Shown: positions 3,946 to 51,901 of the stretch, one piece after another
How positions within the stretch are numbered: the first letter of the stretch is position 1
How the letters are laid out: every line of letters starts with the position of its first letter
Assembly: GCA_944390885.1 (NCBI GenBank)
Contig: CALXRP010000008.1
Span: 5,019-69,018, forward strand
Direction of reading: 5' to 3'
DNA: 64,000 nucleotides
DNA from: an uncultured Alphaproteobacteria bacterium
GTDB lineage: Bacteria; Pseudomonadota; Alphaproteobacteria; RF32; CAG-239
The notes under the pieces: model-generated
What the model was told of the DNA's origin: nothing
What the model saw: the letters and a program-made list of their open reading frames with translations, nothing else
The model's database searches: none
Made by a program: the position numbers and the translations under genes

Positions 3946-4346
3946 AGACCCGGGCAATCGGATAGCTGCGCCGCGGAATGTAAGATCCGCCGGTGAGGAA
4001 AGTCCGGGCTTCACGGAGGCAGGGCACCAGATAACGTCTGGCTGGAGAAATCCAAGGGAAAGTGCCACAGAAAATTACCGCCCTCTATACGGGGGTAAGG
4101 TTGAAAAGGCGAGGTAAGAGCTCACCGCGGTTTTGGTAACAAAACCGGCCAGGAAAACCCTGCTCGATGTAAGACCAAGTTAGGACGGTTTTCTTTATGA
4201 AAACCAGCATGAAGCGCCTCCGCTTCTTCCAGAGGTAGGTCGCGATGAGCCGGACAGTGATGTTCGGCCGAGATGAATAGCTATCGTCATGATATTTCGG
4301 TAGCAGGAATATTAATGATACAGAACCCGGCTTACAGATTGCCCTA
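3946..4346 (+). ncRNA. rnpB: RNase P RNA (bacterial type A M1 RNA).
   Basis: Conserved RNase P motifs are present: GGAAAGTCCGGGCT, AGGGCA, the GGTAA.AGCTCACC region and ACAGAACCCGGCTTA near the 3' end. A P1 pairing (gggcaatc ... gattgccc) brackets the molecule. A sigma70-like promoter (TTGCAA-16-TATTGT) lies ~7 nt upstream and a T-tract follows. Confidence 0.85.
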
Positions 4347-4439
4347 TTTTCTTGTTTGACTTCTTGATATTTGATTTGCAAATTCCGACTCTTTAGTGTA
4401 AAACTAAAAACATTAAAAATAAGTGGGAAAATAAAACAA

Positions 4440-7719: not shown

Positions 7720-7908
7720 AATAAAAAATTAAATAGTTTTTCTCAATAAGGACTCATATTTCTTATCAAGAATAAAGTCTTCATATAAAAAATAATATAA
7801 TTTTTTCTGGCCTTAAAATCCATATGGAAAAGGCAAATATAATTTTCTTTCTATTTAACCGGTTTAATCAAATATATACAAAATATATTATATATTTTTC
7901 AATAAATA

Positions 7909-8004
7909 TTGACATTGTTTTTGTGGTGTGCTATTATTTTATATGAAAACACTCTCATGAGTATTTTCTCCGGCCTCGTTTTTCATCGGCTTAGAGGCCG
8001 GAGA
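7909..8004 (+). promoter_or_regulatory. Near-consensus sigma70 promoter followed by a stable hairpin. This may be a small-RNA candidate.
   Basis: The promoter is TTGACA (7909-7914), a 17 nt spacer and TATTAT (7932-7937). Inverted repeats tctccggcctc / gaggccggaga span 7967-8004. No convincing ORF follows before the repeat array. Confidence 0.3.
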
Positions 8005-8400
8005 TTCCCTACACGGCAGGAGGCCGGATCAGTTATCAATACTGAAACGCAGAGACCGCAATGCTGTGACGGGATTTGTGAATGGTAAGGTGCTTTGAAG
8101 TATTTGTCATTCTCGGCACATTATTTTTCTGTCATTCTCGGGCTTGACCCGAGAATCCAGATAAATAAATGGCCTTATTATTGACTTGGATTGCCGGGTG
8201 TAAATTCCCGCAAGCGGGCCCCTTTCGTCCCGTAGGGTTCGAACTTCGTACAAATCTAAGCTAAAGCTAAGGATTTGCACTTGTTCTCACCAACTATCGA
8301 CTTCAAGTCCGGCAATGACTAGAAAAAATAAAGTGCCCGGCAATGACAAAGAAAAAAGGACGACAATACAGAAAAGAATTTTTATTAACCATTCTGAGCA
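7960..8400. repeat. Mosaic array of short palindromic intergenic repeats, array 1. Units follow a GTCATTCTCGGG-loop-CCCGAGAATCC pattern, and GCCCGGCAATGAC half-units are also present.
   Basis: The palindrome gtcattctcgggcttgacccgagaatcc lies at 8131-8158 and a half copy at 8106-8119. gtccggcaatgac and gcccggcaatgac units lie at 8300-8345. The same units recur at 41.6-41.9 kb and 50.1-50.5 kb. Confidence 0.8.
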
Positions 8401-8516
8401 GCATGCTGCTCAAGAAAAAGAAAAGAGCAACGCGTAAGCTTTGGCACGATGATGACAATCGATCGGGGTTTTGTTGCCTCACCCGCTGAAACGTTTGCTT
8501 AGGAAGGAGACCGAAA

Positions 8517-9923
8517 ATGAATAACACTATGCTACACATGAAACTTAACTCTGCGGTGTCAACCTTTGCCGTTGCCGCTGCTTTCGCCGTCTTCCTCCCG
8601 CCTTCCAATGCTTCGGCAGGTGTTTGCTTTCTGCCCGACTGTCAGGATGATGAGGTTGTTCAGGGCGATATTAATATGGACATTAACGAAGATTCCAGAT
8701 TTTGTGAGGAGAAAGGCTATACCTATTATTCTTCCGGCGAATGTCCGCAATATCAGGCTAAAGTCGGTACTTGTTCCCGTGATGATCATTACCTGAAATG
8801 TGATGCCGTTACCTGGTGTAAGAACAACGGCTATAATACGCAAACCTGTTCTCTGCCGTCCTTCGTAGACGGACAATGTCCGAACGGCAAACCTTATTAC
8901 AAACAATGTAAAGAAGACCGGCCGAGAGCCTGCCGCGAACAAGGCTATGTCAATTCTTGTTCTTCCGGACGGCTTTATGCTACCTCAAACCGCTGTCCCT
9001 GGGATAATTCTTACGGTAAATGCTGCACCGCTTCTCCGTCGACAGGTTGTCCGACCGATTATAAGGTTACCTGTGATTCTTCCCGTGGATCATCCGGAAC
9101 GGATACCTGCGGATATACCTGTTATCGCTGCTGTGATGATACCTGCCCGTCCGGAACTTCTAAAAATTACACCGGATCATACTCAACAACAACCGAATGC
9201 GGTACCAGATGTAACAGATGTAAATCTTGTCCGTCCGGTTCCAGTACTTCTTATACCGGATCTTATGCCGGAACGACCGAATGTAACGGCGGACAAAGCT
9301 GTTATAAATGTAATGATACCTGTCGAACGGGAGAAAAATCGGTTTCTTGTTCCTCGACTTATAAAAAGGTAAAGGTATCAACAACCGAATGCGGAACAGG
9401 ATGTTATGAGTGTCAATATAATACAGATTGTAATGTTACATCAAAATCATGCACCTATGGTTGTGCCTATACTAACTCCTGCGGTAAATGTATATCCTGT
9501 AAGTCTCATAGCCATAGCTATTCCTGCCCCTCCGGCTATCAGTCATCTTCCTGCGGATCAGGTTATACAACATCGGGTACAGCATATAAAACATGTTCTT
9601 GTGGGGCAACTTCTGGGACTTGTTATAAGTGTACCAAAAATTCAAGTGGTGGTTCCGGCGGAGGATCTTGCTGGATTGAGCACTCTTACCCATTTTCATC
9701 TTGTGCATCATCCAAGCGGGCTTATAACTCCGTTGATAGCAGATTGGCATGTCATTCGCACTCCGGCGGATGGGGATTTGACTTCCAATATTATTGTGAA
9801 GATCCCAATAATTATCTTTGGGAAACCCGTTGGGATTCCACTTGGACATGCTATTTTGCAACAAAATCGGAATGTGAAGCTAATTATAATCATTTGGCTA
9901 GTGGATATATTACAAACTCATAA
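8517..9923 (+). CDS. Secreted cysteine-rich modular protein, paralog A (468 aa). It is a novel family with no confident functional assignment.
   Basis: A signal peptide is present (MKLNSAVSTFAVAAAFAVFLPPSNASA). About 80 Cys occur in repeated modules (…SGTSKNYTGSYSTTTECGTRCNRCKSC…). An RBS (ggaaggagacc) lies upstream and a strong terminator downstream. The protein is near-identical to the 40345-41613 product over its N-terminal ~200 aa. Confidence 0.7.
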   Translation: MNNTMLHMKLNSAVSTFAVAAAFAVFLPPSNASAGVCFLPDCQDDEVVQGDINMDINEDSRFCEEKGYTYYSSGECPQYQAKVGTCSRDDHYLKCDAVTWCKNNGYNTQTCSLPSFVDGQCPNGKPYYKQCKEDRPRACREQGYVNSCSSGRLYATSNRCPWDNSYGKCCTASPSTGCPTDYKVTCDSSRGSSGTDTCGYTCYRCCDDTCPSGTSKNYTGSYSTTTECGTRCNRCKSCPSGSSTSYTGSYAGTTECNGGQSCYKCNDTCRTGEKSVSCSSTYKKVKVSTTECGTGCYECQYNTDCNVTSKSCTYGCAYTNSCGKCISCKSHSHSYSCPSGYQSSSCGSGYTTSGTAYKTCSCGATSGTCYKCTKNSSGGSGGGSCWIEHSYPFSSCASSKRAYNSVDSRLACHSHSGGWGFDFQYYCEDPNNYLWETRWDSTWTCYFATKSECEANYNHLASGYITNS

Positions 9924-21538: not shown

Positions 21539-21624
21539 TTTAATGGCCGGAGTTTTTAAACACCGCAAATAAAAATGGTGCCGATTGCGTGACTCGAACA
21601 CGCGACCCACGCATTACGAATGCG
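21539..21624 (-). repeat. Direct repeat duplicating the 3' half of tRNA-Thr plus ~35 bp of its downstream flank. It looks like an att-site scar.
   Basis: The ~85 bp at 21539-21624 are identical to 21797-21881. The identical stretch covers the last 49 nt of the tRNA, including CCA, and then diverges. Confidence 0.75.
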
Positions 21625-21832
21625 CTGAGGATAAAAAAGTTGACTTAACGTCAATTTTTTTTACCGCAAGAAGCTTTTTTGTTAATCAGCCGGAGCCGGG
21701 TAGGCAACGGCGGATGTTACAAGAAAGCTGACCGCAGCGAGTTAATGTTTAAAACATTTACGAGCCAGAGCTAGCAACGCAAAAACTTCGGCAATTTTAA
21801 TGGCCGGAGTTTTTAAACACCGCAAATAAAAA

Positions 21833-21908
<76 letters not shown>

Positions 21909-40344: not shown

Positions 40345-41613
40345 TTATTTGCACAGGTCTGCAGCAACAGCTTCGGCTTCAGCTTTTCCTGAATCACAAG
40401 AGTCATTCTTATAATTGGCCCAACATTCTTCCGGAGTGGAATAGCCGTTAACTCGGGTATGATAATATTTAACAAATTGTCCATTTTTATAAAGACTATG
40501 AGAACAAGTTGCAGCCACTGTCTGTGGAAATTTTAGATACCAGTGATAAGTTTCGTTCCTGTTATCTTGACAATTGGAGGCATAGCTTTGATGTGTTACA
40601 GAGTAGGTACATGGAGGTTCAGCCGGCTTAGATTTACAAGAAGTACATTTACCACAGGAGTTGGTAGAAGCACAACCATAATCGCAGGATTTTGAAGACA
40701 CAGAACAATCGGAATTATACTCGCAAGAATAGCAAGCCGTCCCGCATTCGGTTGTCGATACGCGGGTTTTTACATAATTGGAAGAGCAAGATACGGATTT
40801 CTGACCTGAGCGGCAGGTATCGGAACAAGCATAGCAGCTTCCGCACTCTGAAGATCCAACATAAGATCCGGTATAAGACCGGCTGCCGGAAGTACAGTCT
40901 TTACATCTGTTACATCTGGTACCGCATTCGGTAGTAGAAGCATAAGATCCGTGATAGTTTTTAGAAGTACCGGACGGACAGGTGTCATCACAGCAGCGGT
41001 AACAAGTATATCCGCAGGTATCTACACCGGACGAACCGCGGGACGGATCACAGGTGACTTTGTAACTGGACGGACAACCTGTCGACGGCGAAGCAGTACA
41101 ACATTTACCATAAGAATTATCCCACGGACAACGGTTTGTCGATTTATACAACCGTCCCGGAGAACAGGAGTTGACATATCCTTGTTCGCGGCAGGCTCTC
41201 GGCCGGTCTTCTTTACAACCCTTGTAATAAGGTTTGCCGTTCGGACATTGGTCGTTAACAAAGGACGGCAGAGAACAGGTCTGCGTATTATAGCCGTTAT
41301 TCTTACACCAGGTAACGGCATCACATTTCAGGTAATGATCATCACGGGAACAAGTACCGACTTTAGCCTGATATTGCGGACATTCGCCGGAAGAATAATA
41401 GGTATAGCCTTTCTCCTCGCAATACTCGGTATCGGAGTTGATGTTCATATTAATATCGCCCTGAACAATCTCATCATCCTGACAGTCCGGCAGAAAACAA
41501 ATGCCAGCTGAAGCATTGGAAGGCGGGAGAAAGACCGCAAAAGCAGCGGCAACAGCAAGAACCGACACCGCAGAGTTAAGTTTCATGTGTAGCATAGTGT
41601 TATAATTTTTCAT
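40345..41613 (-). CDS. Secreted cysteine-rich modular protein, paralog B (≈415-422 aa).
   Basis: The signal peptide and first ~200 aa match paralog A at >90% DNA identity. The same Cys-rich modules are present, with a divergent central and C-terminal part. Confidence 0.7.
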   Translation of the reverse strand: MKNYNTMLHMKLNSAVSVLAVAAAFAVFLPPSNASAGICFLPDCQDDEIVQGDINMNINSDTEYCEEKGYTYYSSGECPQYQAKVGTCSRDDHYLKCDAVTWCKNNGYNTQTCSLPSFVNDQCPNGKPYYKGCKEDRPRACREQGYVNSCSPGRLYKSTNRCPWDNSYGKCCTASPSTGCPSSYKVTCDPSRGSSGVDTCGYTCYRCCDDTCPSGTSKNYHGSYASTTECGTRCNRCKDCTSGSRSYTGSYVGSSECGSCYACSDTCRSGQKSVSCSSNYVKTRVSTTECGTACYSCEYNSDCSVSSKSCDYGCASTNSCGKCTSCKSKPAEPPCTYSVTHQSYASNCQDNRNETYHWYLKFPQTVAATCSHSLYKNGQFVKYYHTRVNGYSTPEECWANYKNDSCDSGKAEAEAVAADLCK

Positions 41614-41639
41614 CGGCTTCCTCCCTTATAAAAATTCTT

Positions 41640-41900
41640 TTCTTCTTTTGTCGTCCTTTTTTTTCTTTGTCATTGCCGGGCGCTTTATTTTTTTAGTCAT
41701 TGCCGGGCTCTTTTTTTCTTTCGTCATCCCCGGGCTTCGACCCGGGGATCCATATTTCAAAGCACCTTGTCATTCACAAACCCCGTCATAGCATCGCGAT
41801 CTCTTAGGCACAGTGCCAACAACCGATCGCTCAGGCCGGTGCCTGTGGATTCTCGGGTCAAGCCCGAGAATGACAAATTGAGTAACAAACCTCATAAGAA
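41640..41900. repeat. Mosaic palindromic repeat array 2. It lies upstream of paralog B and is partly homologous to array 1 in inverted orientation.
   Basis: The array contains gtcattgccgggc+T-tract units (x2) and gtcatccccgggcttcgacccggggatcc (41726-41756). It also contains ggattctcgggtcaagcccgagaatgac (41846-41874) and a spacer ctcaggccggtgcctgtgg that is shared with array 3. Confidence 0.8.
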
Positions 41901-42038
41901 CGACAATAAAGATACTATAACACAAGAAAACACAAAAGTCAATATATTATGAAAAATAGGACGGGGATTTTGGCTAAAGAAAACAAAAAATACCGGCAAA
42001 TAAAAGTTGCCGGTATTCGTTAAAGTAAAAAAGAATTT

Positions 42039-50102: not shown

Positions 50103-50109
50103 AGCTGTC

Positions 50110-50470
50110 TGCCGTACCTGTCATCCCCGGGCTTTTTTTCTAGTCATCCCCGGGCCGTGTTTTTTTATTGTCATTGCCGGGCTATGTTTTTTTATCGTCA
50201 TCCCCGGGCACCGACCCGGGGATCCAGATCAAACAAATTTCCTCTTAGTCATTGCCGGACTTGATCCGGCAATCCATTCTTCAAAGCACAATCTTAACCG
50301 TAGAAAACAATGGAGCAACGCGATCCTCAGGGCACAATTCTGACAACTGACCGCTCAGGCCGTTGCCTGTGGATTCTCGGGTCAAGCCCGAGAATGACAA
50401 AAACTTCAAAGCACAAAGCCATTCATAACCCCCGCCGGGTGCGCAGCCGACGTTCGGCCGCCTGCCGTGC
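50110..50470. repeat. Mosaic palindromic repeat array 3.
   Basis: The array contains gtcatccccgggc(T)n, gtcattgccgggc(T)n and catccccgggcaccgacccggggatcc. It also contains gtcattgccggacttgatccggcaatcc, ctcaggccgttgcctgtgg and ggattctcgggtcaagcccgagaatgac. Confidence 0.8.
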
Positions 50471-50473
50471 AGG

Positions 50474-51901
50474 TTATTTATGAAGAGAAATAGGCAGATA
50501 AATTGTAAAAGTCGTTCCGTTCAGAGTAGTAGAAGAAACGGTAAGATTACCGCGGTGCCGGATAACAATCTGTTTAACGATGGAAAGGCCGAGCCCGGTT
50601 CCGCGAATGTTCTTATCCTTATGTTCCTGCATGCGATAAAAGCGTTCCGTCAGTCGCATAAGATCTTCCGGCCCGATTTTAGGTCCTTTGTTGTTGATGG
50701 AAATAGCCAAAGCCTCGCCTTCTGCCACTTTGTAGCTCTTAGACGGCGGAATGGCATTGGCTTTTTCAATATCTATGGTAATTTTGCTGTCGCTGGCGCC
50801 ATATTTGATAGCATTATCCGTCAGGTTTTGAATAACCTGTTTGATTTGGGCGCGGTCTCCGGTAATTTCGGGAATGTTGCGCCCGAATTTAATTTTGATG
50901 TTCATATTGCGTTTTTCAGCTCTTTGCGACAGCGCCTGTGCGGCTTCTTCTGCCACATCAATCACATTGACATCTTCTTCCGGCAGACTGTCCTGCTTCA
51001 TCTCGATTTTGGAAAGCGAAAGCAGGTTTTCAATCAGCGACGACATATATTCTGCTTGCTCCTGCATAATTTTCAAAAATGATTCACGGGCTTTTTCGTC
51101 ATCTTTGGCTGAGGTCTGCAGGGTTTCAATAAAACCGGAAATGATTGCCAGCGGCGTACGCAGTTCATGGCTGGCATTGGCCACAAAGTCAGATTGCATT
51201 TTCTCGATTTTCATGGCTTTGGTCATGTCATAAATGGAAATAACGGCCACGGCGCGTCCTTTGGAAAGCCATGGCAGCTGTTTGATATGGGCATAGAGTT
51301 TGCGGCTTGCCGGTTTTTCCACATAAAAAATCAGGTTTTCCGATTTGCTTTCTTTCTTCAAAACTTTTGAAACGGCATTAATAAAATTGTTGGAAGCAAA
51401 TAAGGCATCAACATTTTTATCAGTAATGTCCTCTCCGAAAAACGAGCGGGCGGAAAGATTGGCACCCAGGATATTTCCGGCACGGTCAATCATCACAATC
51501 GGGTCGGGCAAACTGTCCAGAACGGCAGTATCGGAAATTGTCTGTGCCTCCAGCATATCGGTTTTATGCGCCCAAAAACTGTGCATGGCGTTCAGGCTGC
51601 TGACAATATCTTTGGCGTCTTTTTCCGAGAGTTTAAGGGCTTTCTCGTCAAACTCGCCGCCGTTTGACAGATTGGAAATATATTTTCTGATCTGCTGCAT
51701 TTCAAAAGTAATCGGAAACAGCATAACAATATTAAAAATAACCACCGCTGCCAGAGAAAGAACGGCCAAAAGCGGGGAAATCAGCTCAAACAGCACCAAA
51801 AGCATAAAGACCAGAGCGGCCGGAGCGGAAAGAAACATAATCCGGGCAGCAAATTTTGTGTCTTTTTCAATTGAGAAGATATTTCTGACAAAGTTAAACA
51901 T
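50474..51901 (-). CDS. phoR: Sensor histidine kinase, PhoR-like (2 TM, PAS, HisKA, HATPase_c). No adjacent response regulator is present.
   Basis: The H-box (FVANASHELRTPLAIISGFIETL), N-box (NLTDNAIKY) and G-boxes (GTGLGLSIV) are present. Confidence 0.6.
   Translation of the reverse strand: MFNFVRNIFSIEKDTKFAARIMFLSAPAALVFMLLVLFELISPLLAVLSLAAVVIFNIVMLFPITFEMQQIRKYISNLSNGGEFDEKALKLSEKDAKDIVSSLNAMHSFWAHKTDMLEAQTISDTAVLDSLPDPIVMIDRAGNILGANLSARSFFGEDITDKNVDALFASNNFINAVSKVLKKESKSENLIFYVEKPASRKLYAHIKQLPWLSKGRAVAVISIYDMTKAMKIEKMQSDFVANASHELRTPLAIISGFIETLQTSAKDDEKARESFLKIMQEQAEYMSSLIENLLSLSKIEMKQDSLPEEDVNVIDVAEEAAQALSQRAEKRNMNIKIKFGRNIPEITGDRAQIKQVIQNLTDNAIKYGASDSKITIDIEKANAIPPSKSYKVAEGEALAISINNKGPKIGPEDLMRLTERFYRMQEHKDKNIRGTGLGLSIVKQIVIRHRGNLTVSSTTLNGTTFTIYLPISLHK

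Follow-up and report, generated by a model that had tools for sequence, protein, structure and literature searches.

A 64,000-nt stretch of DNA from an uncultured Alphaproteobacteria bacterium (the window, whose positions serve as coordinates throughout) carries three intergenic mosaic arrays of short palindromic repeats, at 7960-8400 (locus A), 41640-41900 (locus B) and 50110-50470 (locus C). We consider it likely that these arrays are clusters of CGTC-3-type members of the CGTC-tagged repetitive extragenic palindromes (REPs), combined with lineage-specific spacer modules, and that they expand and contract by recombination or slippage. A sequence-only reading had described arrays of shuffled short units at these three places; the sequences it quoted are present there, and its spacer ctcaggccg(g/t)tgcctgtgg proved to be the start of a 95-nt module, termed RS1, that is found at all three loci. 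The three intergenic arrays are real, and that observation is confirmed. The pattern GTCATYSYCGGR-N4-8-YCCGRSRATCC matched six times in the window (8131+, 41723+, 41847-, 50197+, 50248+ and 50371-) and not once across 100 shuffles. The 12-nt left arm has 14 exact matches in the window, all inside loci A, B and C, and 20 matches, versus 3.2 expected, when one mismatch is tolerated. Altogether the window holds six full hairpins and about nine half units, confined to the three intergenic loci, with none expected by chance, and a repeat finder ties the loci to each other (pairs D2, D3, I3 and I5-I11). The surrounding DNA, with a G+C content of about 44% and flagellar, cell-division, clpB and mutS genes, is ordinary core chromosome, and the presence of FliX among the window genes points to an alphaproteobacterium.

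The full unit consists of a (C/T/A)GTC tag, an AT-NNN-CGG-R arm, a loop of 5-6 nt, the complementary arm and a CCA tail; the window arms read AT(T/C)(C/G)(T/C)CGG(G/A)-N5-6-complement. Folding gave a 9-bp stem beginning with AU in all six window hairpins, with energies of -13.4 to -18.2 kcal/mol, and the CCA tail is likewise present in all six. The tag is CGTC in two, TGTC in three and AGTC in one, and the loop is 5 nt (CTTGA) in four and 6 nt in the two that belong to the ATCCCCGGG subtype. Head-to-head pairs occur at 8131(+)/8188-8319(-), 41723(+)/41847(-) and 50248(+)/50371(-). The CGTC-tagged REPs described by Di Nocera, De Gregorio and Rocco (2013, BMC Genomics 14:522, PMC3733652) have a CGTC or TGTC tag (with CCTC tolerated as a variant), an 8-9-bp stem starting from AT, a 4-5-nt loop, a CCA tail and head-to-head dimers; in CGTC-3, which occurs in Rhodopseudomonas, Agrobacterium, Sinorhizobium and others, the stem has 9 bp with A-T and T-A as its first pairs and the loop has 5 nt. 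The window hairpins agree with CGTC-3 in tag, 9-bp AT stem, 5-nt CTTGA loop, CCA tail, head-to-head dimers and sequence type, as they do in being intergenic, in their alphaproteobacterial host and in having no linked transposase. As to sequence type, supplement file 4 of the same paper gives intragenic R. palustris CGTC-3 copies as VIAGLDPAIH...DARVKPAHD; VIAGLDPAIH back-translates to GTCATCGCCGGGCTTGACCCGGCGATCCA and DARVKPAHD to its inverted partner, which is the window motif. The arrays depart from the published family in three ways: nearly all copies seen here sit in mosaic clusters with other repeats, whereas clustered CGTC elements were found to be rare save in Neisseria and Wolbachia, with head-to-tail order negligible (PMC3733652); the ATCCCCGGG subtype has 6-nt loops; and tandem 5' half units with T-rich fillers precede full hairpins.

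The hairpin is a class-wide alphaproteobacterial repeat, kept palindromic by compensatory changes and as a rule arranged in head-to-head pairs, and is not peculiar to this genome; the CGTC REPs as a whole are mainly alphaproteobacterial (PMC3733652). A scan of a genome collection with one genome per species, using a pattern that did not demand complementarity and allowed loops of 4-8 nt, found the hairpin in at least 119 loci of other genomes, or at least 118 once L097 (a relative of the window lineage) is set aside, and these at least 118 loci hold at least 133 further matches. The taxa among the matches listed are almost all Alphaproteobacteria, the orders being mostly Rhizobiales, Caulobacterales and Rhodospirillales, and the most frequent sequence among them is GTCATTGCCGGGCTTGACCCGGCAATCC; the window pattern also matches contigs of Rhodopseudomonas, Agrobacterium and Bradyrhizobium. 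The four free stem positions are all Watson-Crick pairs in 124 of the 133 listed matches, for which chance would give 1 in 16, and the loop is 5 nt in 129 of the 133. Among the same 133 listed matches, GTC is preceded by C in 68% and by T in 29%, together 97%; ATCC is followed by A in 94%; and 44% are accompanied, at a distance of no more than 160 nt, by an inverted partner (median spacer, 32 nt). The hairpin was also found in 98 viral or prophage contigs; the 64-kb window contains no prophage. The exact 28-mer of the hairpin had no match in a literature search.

Stem pairing across 92 distinct sequences supports the same picture: 98.6% of cells are paired, four pairs covary, and cells changed on both sides number 123 versus 52 ± 4.6 in shuffles, none of 500 shuffles being that high. 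Wobble or mismatch cells comprise 10 G-T and 9 A-C; given these similar frequencies no transcribed strand is favoured, and the selection that maintains the palindrome may act at the DNA level. The hairpins of the lineage fall into four stem subtypes. Chimeric hairpins, with arms from two subtypes joined at the loop, make up 3 of the 41 in distinct contexts, the outcome that recombination inside the shared CCGGG-loop-CCCGG core would give. Separately, perfect CGTC-3 hairpins, often of the ATTGTCGGG subtype, were seen in contigs binned far from Alphaproteobacteria: Patescibacteria/Paceibacteria metagenome-assembled genomes (MAGs; L013, L054 and L080), Dehalococcoidia (L023), Chloroflexia (L112 and L115), Nitrospirae (L042) and a Treponema MAG (L018). 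These hairpins in distant phyla could reflect a wider distribution, horizontal transfer or misbinning.

We resolved the arrays into modules by comparing loci from other metagenome strains and paralog loci, retrieved by exact-protein look-ups. The modules, and the features of each window locus (ORF, open reading frame), are as follows.

Full hairpin (H): four stem subtypes.
RS1: about 95 nt, extending from CTGCACGGCAGG or CAGGCAxCGGCCTG as far as GTGCTTTGAAGTAT; typically flanked by a pair of inverted hairpins.
Short dimer: two hairpins head to head, separated by a 29-nt spacer (agataaataaa...attgactt).
S: small hairpin tcacacccttagggtga between duplicated arms.
Half unit: tag, left arm and first loop base (GTCATYSYCGGGC), then a 10-16-nt T-rich filler; period about 27 nt.
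RS2: about 104 nt in the window; sits in a hairpin loop.

Locus A, 7720-8516: between a RecN/SMC-like gene and the cysteine-rich (Cys-rich) ORF 8517-9923(+).
7909..7937, +: promoter-like site TTGACA-17-TATTAT with TG, 11/12 consensus matches, upstream of the array and the Cys-rich gene.
8009..8103, +: RS1, 95 nt, nhmmer match, sense with the downstream gene.
8106..8130, +: degenerate 5' half unit GTCATTCTCGGC and T-rich filler, directly upstream of the full hairpin.
8130..8159, +: full CGTC-3 hairpin, T-GTC, ATTCTCGGG, CTTGA, CCCGAGAAT, CCA; -13.4 kcal/mol, z -3.8.
8188..8319, -: inverted partner hairpin, its arms (GGATTGCCGGG and TCCGGCAATGAC) separated by an insert.
8200..8303, +: RS2, 104 nt, non-coding, in the loop between T and CAAG.
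8320..8347, -: half unit GTCATTGCCGGG and T-rich filler, on the upstream side of the split hairpin when read in REP orientation.

Locus B, 41614-42038: between smpB and the Cys-rich ORF 40345-41613(-).
41669..41722, +: two tandem 5' half units GTCATTGCCGGGC with 14-nt T-rich fillers, period 27.
41722..41752, +: full hairpin, C-GTC, ATCCCCGGG, CTTCGA, CCCGGGGAT, CCA, 6-nt loop; -18.2 kcal/mol.
41752..41846, -: RS1 flanked by two inverted hairpins and in sense orientation to the Cys-rich gene 40345-41613(-).
41846..41875, -: full hairpin, identical to the 8131 copy.
41914..41942, -: promoter-like TTGACT-17-TATAGT site, TG included, situated between the array and the smpB terminator (42018-41988).

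Locus C, 50103-50473: flanked by the 3' ends of two genes, a 227-aa ORF(+) and a PAS/HisKA kinase gene(-).
50120..50196, +: three tandem 5' half units and T-rich fillers; number varies between strains.
50196..50226, +: full hairpin with 6-nt loop CACCGA.
50247..50276, +: full hairpin, A-GTC, ATTGCCGGA, CTTGA, TCCGGCAAT, CCA.
50276..50370, -: RS1.
50370..50399, -: full hairpin, sequence as at 8131 and 41847.
50401..50472, -: shortened RS1 that directly adjoins the stop codon of the kinase gene; in other strains the 5' hairpin of this RS1, CCTGC-ACG-GCAGG, forms the autotransporter junction.

At locus A, the hairpin at 8131-8158 and its split partner form a head-to-head dimer with a 29-nt spacer, of which an intact version occurs in L004 and L351. 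G+C content differs by module: 57-77% in hairpins and half units, 10-27% in short fillers and spacers, and 47-52% in RS1 and RS2. Alignment of its copies showed RS1 to be itself a mosaic, and RNAalifold returned no consensus structure for 17 of them. A comparison with Rfam, which the sequence-only reading had suggested, gave no match for the hairpins, RS1 or RS2: at gathering thresholds the whole window yielded RNase P RNA and tRNA-Thr only, and relaxed scans of locus A and of L224/L318 yielded nothing related to any of the three.

dRS3 and the Neisseria intergenic mosaic element (NIME) arrays were reportedly described by Parkhill in 2000. The parallel that had been drawn between these and the present arrays is upheld by Di Nocera et al. 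(2013), who assign dRS3 (as CGTC-1) to the same CGTC-tagged REP superfamily as the alphaproteobacterial hairpins (PMC3733652), and by the organisation of the arrays themselves. As in NIME arrays, inverted hairpin arms enclose modules of 50-150 bp, RS1 (95 nt) lying between inverted hairpins at B and C and RS2 (104 nt) between the arms of one hairpin at A; comparison with orthologous loci of other strains showed that syntenic arrays vary in unit number and length and adjoin variable secreted- or surface-protein genes; other small elements have been inserted opportunistically; and G+C is high in hairpins (57-77%) and low in short spacers (10-27%), a wave of G+C along NIME arrays having been reported (PMC1797815). 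The mosaic is organised like Neisseria NIME arrays or enterobacterial BIME (bacterial interspersed mosaic element) arrays, and the arrays are hot spots of structural change beside secreted- or surface-protein genes. Membership in dRS3/NIME proper is ruled out by sequence, stem, loop and bacterial class: dRS3, a 20-bp inverted repeat ATTCCCNNNNNNNNGGGAAT (PMC1797815), is ATTCCC-N8-GGGAAT, with a shorter stem and a 4-nt loop, in contrast to the 9-bp stem and 5-6-nt loop found here, and the RS families are different ones, as is the class of bacteria. Moreover, dRS3 is targeted by a phage transposase in Neisseria (PMC1797815), whereas neither a filamentous phage nor a hairpin-targeting transposase was found in the window or the lineage loci.

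Other repeat systems are more distant. The REP, BIME and REPIN (REP-derived) elements of E. coli and Pseudomonas are also short intergenic palindromes, often in inverted pairs and in strain-variable mosaics, but they carry a GTAG tag and are linked to a single-copy RAYT (REP-associated tyrosine transposase) gene; here the tag is CGTC/TGTC, and no Y1 transposase was found among the approximately 50 window ORFs. Br-REP2 of Bradyrhizobium is a GATTCCGGG...CCCCGGAATGA palindrome of 3' untranslated regions (Hahn 2016, PMC5082802). It resembles the present unit in its alphaproteobacterial host and in its layout of tag and arm, and differs in having a longer loop and another stem sequence, with no mosaic arrays described. 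CRISPR (clustered regularly interspaced short palindromic repeat) arrays have identical repeats of 24-48 nt and unique spacers of similar length. We rejected that assignment for the half-unit runs, in which the half units are 13 nt and the fillers are 10-16 nt, T-rich, of low complexity and mutually similar, and rejected an iteron reading on repeat and spacer geometry.

The arrays are fixed in chromosomal position, yet their modules are gained, lost, duplicated and reshuffled far faster than the flanks change. Locus B ranges from 323 to 696 bp across the window and six other contigs (seven strains), and locus C from 249 to 647 bp across eight contigs; every mosaic at B and C is distinct, identical strains excepted, whereas the 3.2-3.5-kb flanks of the same contigs are 96.6-100% identical with indels of at most 2 nt. 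At one paralog locus an array is present in some strains and absent from others: L224 has a 639-bp leader with an array, and in the orthologous L352 the intergenic region is 180 bp long and lacks one. Similarly, L227 has RS1 only, and L228 and L229 carry arrays at the same site.

The half units are strictly polar. A left half unit stands directly upstream of the full hairpin in 15 of 43 lineage hairpins and downstream in none, and this holds on both DNA strands; in other taxa, ascertained through full hairpins, a half unit is found upstream in 1 of 253. A metagenome scan for tandem half units found the same order, in which one full hairpin closes a run of N half units, in many other lineages that are mostly G+C-rich and have fillers of their own. 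At least 126 chains were listed, 80 of them without a full hairpin and some resembling coding repeats; the full hairpin comes last in all 46 listed chains that contain one, although the design of the scan was biased against chains starting with a full hairpin, and for this reason polarity was tested on the matches ascertained through full hairpins. Polar chains with a period of 23-27 nt were seen in other lineages at L239 22-190 and L291 7456-7570 and in L286, L326, L250, L234, L299 and L330. The arrangement is absent from the 2013 description of the CGTC family and goes beyond the published account. The 77-nt stretch of half units at locus C gave a fold no better than that of shuffles (z -0.13), and half units were rejected as terminators on that ground.

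RS2 is inserted exactly in the hairpin loop, as GGAT-arm-T^[GTAAATT...CGACTT]^CAAG-arm-ATGAC. It occurs in different hairpins and loci (window 8200-8303, L006 3937-4040, L097 6468-6640 and L224 390-561) and in another lineage (L318 9052-9133 and L322), for which the orthologous L313 has an intact hairpin as the empty site. The copies are non-coding and about 84-183 nt long, and one internal hairpin varies in a compensatory manner (CCCGC/GCGGG versus CCCAAC/GTTGGG). No match to RS2 was obtained in Rfam, in two scans of viral contigs or by blastn against plasmids. RS2 probably represents a small mobile element with REP loops as its target, and its precise insertion in hairpin loops is, like the half-unit polarity, beyond the published description. 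One could envisage that polar half units and RS2 inserts are footprints left by an enzyme able to recognise a CGTC-REP hairpin on the tag side and to nick its loop. We hold this idea only tentatively and think it unlikely; if true, the lineage would show how CGTC REPs propagate and would provide a mechanism for NIME-type array growth outside Neisseria.

Two of the arrays lie upstream of Cys-rich paralogs, as the sequence-only reading had stated: A before ORF 8517-9923(+) and B before ORF 40345-41613(-). Both proteins have a signal peptide and no Pfam domain, and the first 726 nt of their genes are 87% identical, with divergent C-terminal parts. They have 490 variable Cys-rich homologs; all those with a named source come from uncultured Alphaproteobacteria MAGs, with several paralogs per MAG. 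REP/RS arrays were present, in at least some strains, at all six paralog loci examined, always between a conserved upstream block and the ribosome-binding-site block (gaatttttataagggaggaagccgATG). The upstream block reads ttagccaaaatcc...TTGACx-17-TATAGT, with a sigma-70 score of 10-11/12 and an extended -10 TG, and lies at window positions 41914-41960 and 7800-7937 and at L224 9440-9490, L227 9790-9860, L350 9700-9770, L351 9670-9725 and L352 9900-9960. The locus-B type of the promoter block is conserved in L001-L006, L224, L227-L229, L350 and L351. In L352, which has no array, the same block is situated about 45 nt from the ATG. Since the block precedes the arrays and has this position in L352, the arrays at the Cys-rich loci most likely lie inside 5' leaders of about 40 nt to more than 500 nt. 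RS1 is sense with the neighbouring gene at A, B and C, on different DNA strands, and the cumulative GC skew of the window rises uniformly; its orientation therefore follows transcription or co-duplication, not replication.

Locus C, by contrast with A and B, is unrelated to any Cys-rich gene. It had been placed next to a sensor kinase, and it does adjoin the PAS/HisKA kinase gene 50474-51901(-); however, it abuts the 3' end of that gene, between convergent genes, and is thus downstream of the kinase. In seven contigs an autotransporter gene (PF03797, 888-1045 aa) is located at locus C between the kinase stop codon and the array (orthologues at L364 6458-9124 and L366 4413-7550 and in L367 and L369), and the window strain lacks it. 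Where the autotransporter gene is present, the array is its upstream region, and the junction falls in the RS1 5' hairpin CCTGC-NNN-GCAGG. Further arrays away from Cys-rich genes occur beside a tRNA synthetase gene at L224 266-755 (orthologue L352 973-1207) and at L350 2032-2197. In L097, from a related MAG, an array lies downstream of a small Cys-rich ORF.

In the mechanism that we propose, the arrays would be non-coding and largely selfish or neutral DNA that grows and shrinks as the repeated arms and the shared CCCGGG core undergo recombination, replication slippage or template switching with one another, and the neighbouring regions would become hot spots of structural variation. At A and B the result would be strain-specific 5' leaders of the Cys-rich genes; since such leaders hold stable hairpins (-13 to -18 kcal/mol), an effect on mRNA stability or translation is probable. 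At locus C, array variation would allow gain or loss of the autotransporter gene.

We weighed four other explanations of the arrays. That they are mere segmental duplicates of one upstream region, copied along with the Cys-rich gene and representing no interspersed family, is extremely improbable. The A and B paralogs, 87% identical over 726 nt, do have upstream blocks in common (I1, I3 and I6), and the six examined paralog loci share a homologous promoter and leader, so the doubt raised in the sequence-only reading was justified to the extent that A and B are partly one shared duplication; it does not extend to locus C or to the arrays near the tRNA synthetase gene (L224, L352) and at L350 2032-2197, which are independent copies, and it leaves unexplained both the hairpins in at least 118 other genomes and the differing arrays of near-identical strains. 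A second possibility, that the arrays, and RS1 especially, serve as a dedicated cis-regulatory RNA leader of the Cys-rich family (a riboswitch or protein-binding element), would fit the sense orientation of RS1 in nearly every paralog leader, including the minimal L227 leader, and the position of the arrays between the promoter-like block and the ribosome-binding site. We nevertheless judge it very unlikely: RS1 is mosaic and without a consensus structure in 17 copies, nothing in Rfam matches it, L352 lacks both RS1 and an array, RS1 is also found at two places downstream of the kinase and within L224 266-755, and wobble pairs show no strand bias (10 G-T versus 9 A-C).

A role chiefly as transcription terminators or 3' mRNA stabilisers, as for E. 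coli REPs (REP functions are reviewed in PMC5082802), is quite unlikely. It would agree with the stability of the hairpins (-13.4 to -18.2 kcal/mol), with the location of locus C between convergent genes and with the many copies in other Alphaproteobacteria that closely follow stop codons. However, no T-run follows any full hairpin, so the hairpins are not like intrinsic terminators, and terminator scans found none there; the suggestion in the sequence-only reading that the units might act in this way was accordingly not supported. In addition, A and B are in 5' regions, smpB has a canonical terminator of its own upstream of array B, and the half-unit stretches fold no better than shuffles. 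The remaining explanation, that the units are miniature transposons resembling REPINs or MITEs (miniature transposable elements with inverted repeats), moved by a dedicated enzyme (RAYT-like Y1 HUH or IS110-type) encoded elsewhere, seems to us unlikely. Head-to-head dimers with the tags outside, presence or absence of arrays at identical sites, the strict 5' half-unit polarity on both strands and the targeting of dRS3 by the Neisseria phage transposase (PMC1797815) would all be in keeping with it, and the loop-specific insertion of RS2 implies that some enzyme recognises the loop. Against these observations, no transposase family was found among the approximately 50 window ORFs or the called genes of the fetched lineage loci, no CGTC-flanked transposase gene was found in any species by Di Nocera et al. 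(PMC3733652), the GTAG tag is absent, and the changes between strains are mostly rearrangements inside arrays and not insertions at new sites. A literature search found no work after 2013 on the mobilisation of CGTC REPs.

Growth and loss of CGTC-3 clusters by recombination or slippage is the reading that we prefer, and several points weigh against it. The strict polarity of the half units (15 upstream and 0 downstream, on both strands and in one replichore) is not predicted by simple symmetric slippage and argues for a factor that recognises the hairpin on its tag side; together with the targeting by RS2, it leaves room for an enzyme. A search for homology at indel junctions found exact homology of at least 6 nt at 12 of 87 gaps, the remaining gaps being unreliable on account of the global alignment of non-collinear mosaics; eight of these 12 homologous junctions fall in REP arms or the CCCGGG core and four at the RS1 end. 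The association with Cys-rich genes could be inherited in part from an ancestral duplicated leader and not reflect independent targeting, and transcription of the arrays from a start site at the promoter block is predicted on the basis of consensus matches. Finally, copies in the source genome were counted within the 64-kb window.

Two other features of the window were noted. An 89-nt direct repeat, 99% identical, is found at 21539-21627 and 21796-21884, the copies being 257 bp apart; it comprises the 3' 52 nt of tRNA-Thr(CGT) (21833-21908, -) and 37 nt of downstream flank, and represents a small tandem duplication or, alternatively, the scar of a tRNA-integrated element. An ordinary class A RNase P RNA gene (3950-4350, +; 268 bits) lies between a flagellar hook gene and lpxC.

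Arrays of this kind break short-read assemblies and yield spurious small ORFs. The polar half units and RS2 provide handles on how CGTC REPs spread without a known transposase. According to Bentley 2007 (PMC1797815), NIME arrays had not been observed outside Neisseria; in Neisseria they are thought to raise recombination beside surface-antigen genes. An organisation of the NIME type, described there as Neisseria-specific, is found here in an uncultured alphaproteobacterium on a sister hairpin family, with the same variation from strain to strain, beside a large and hypervariable family of secreted Cys-rich proteins and an autotransporter gene missing from some strains. This suggests that hairpin-bounded mosaic arrays may be a more general route by which host-associated bacteria vary their surface and secreted proteins.

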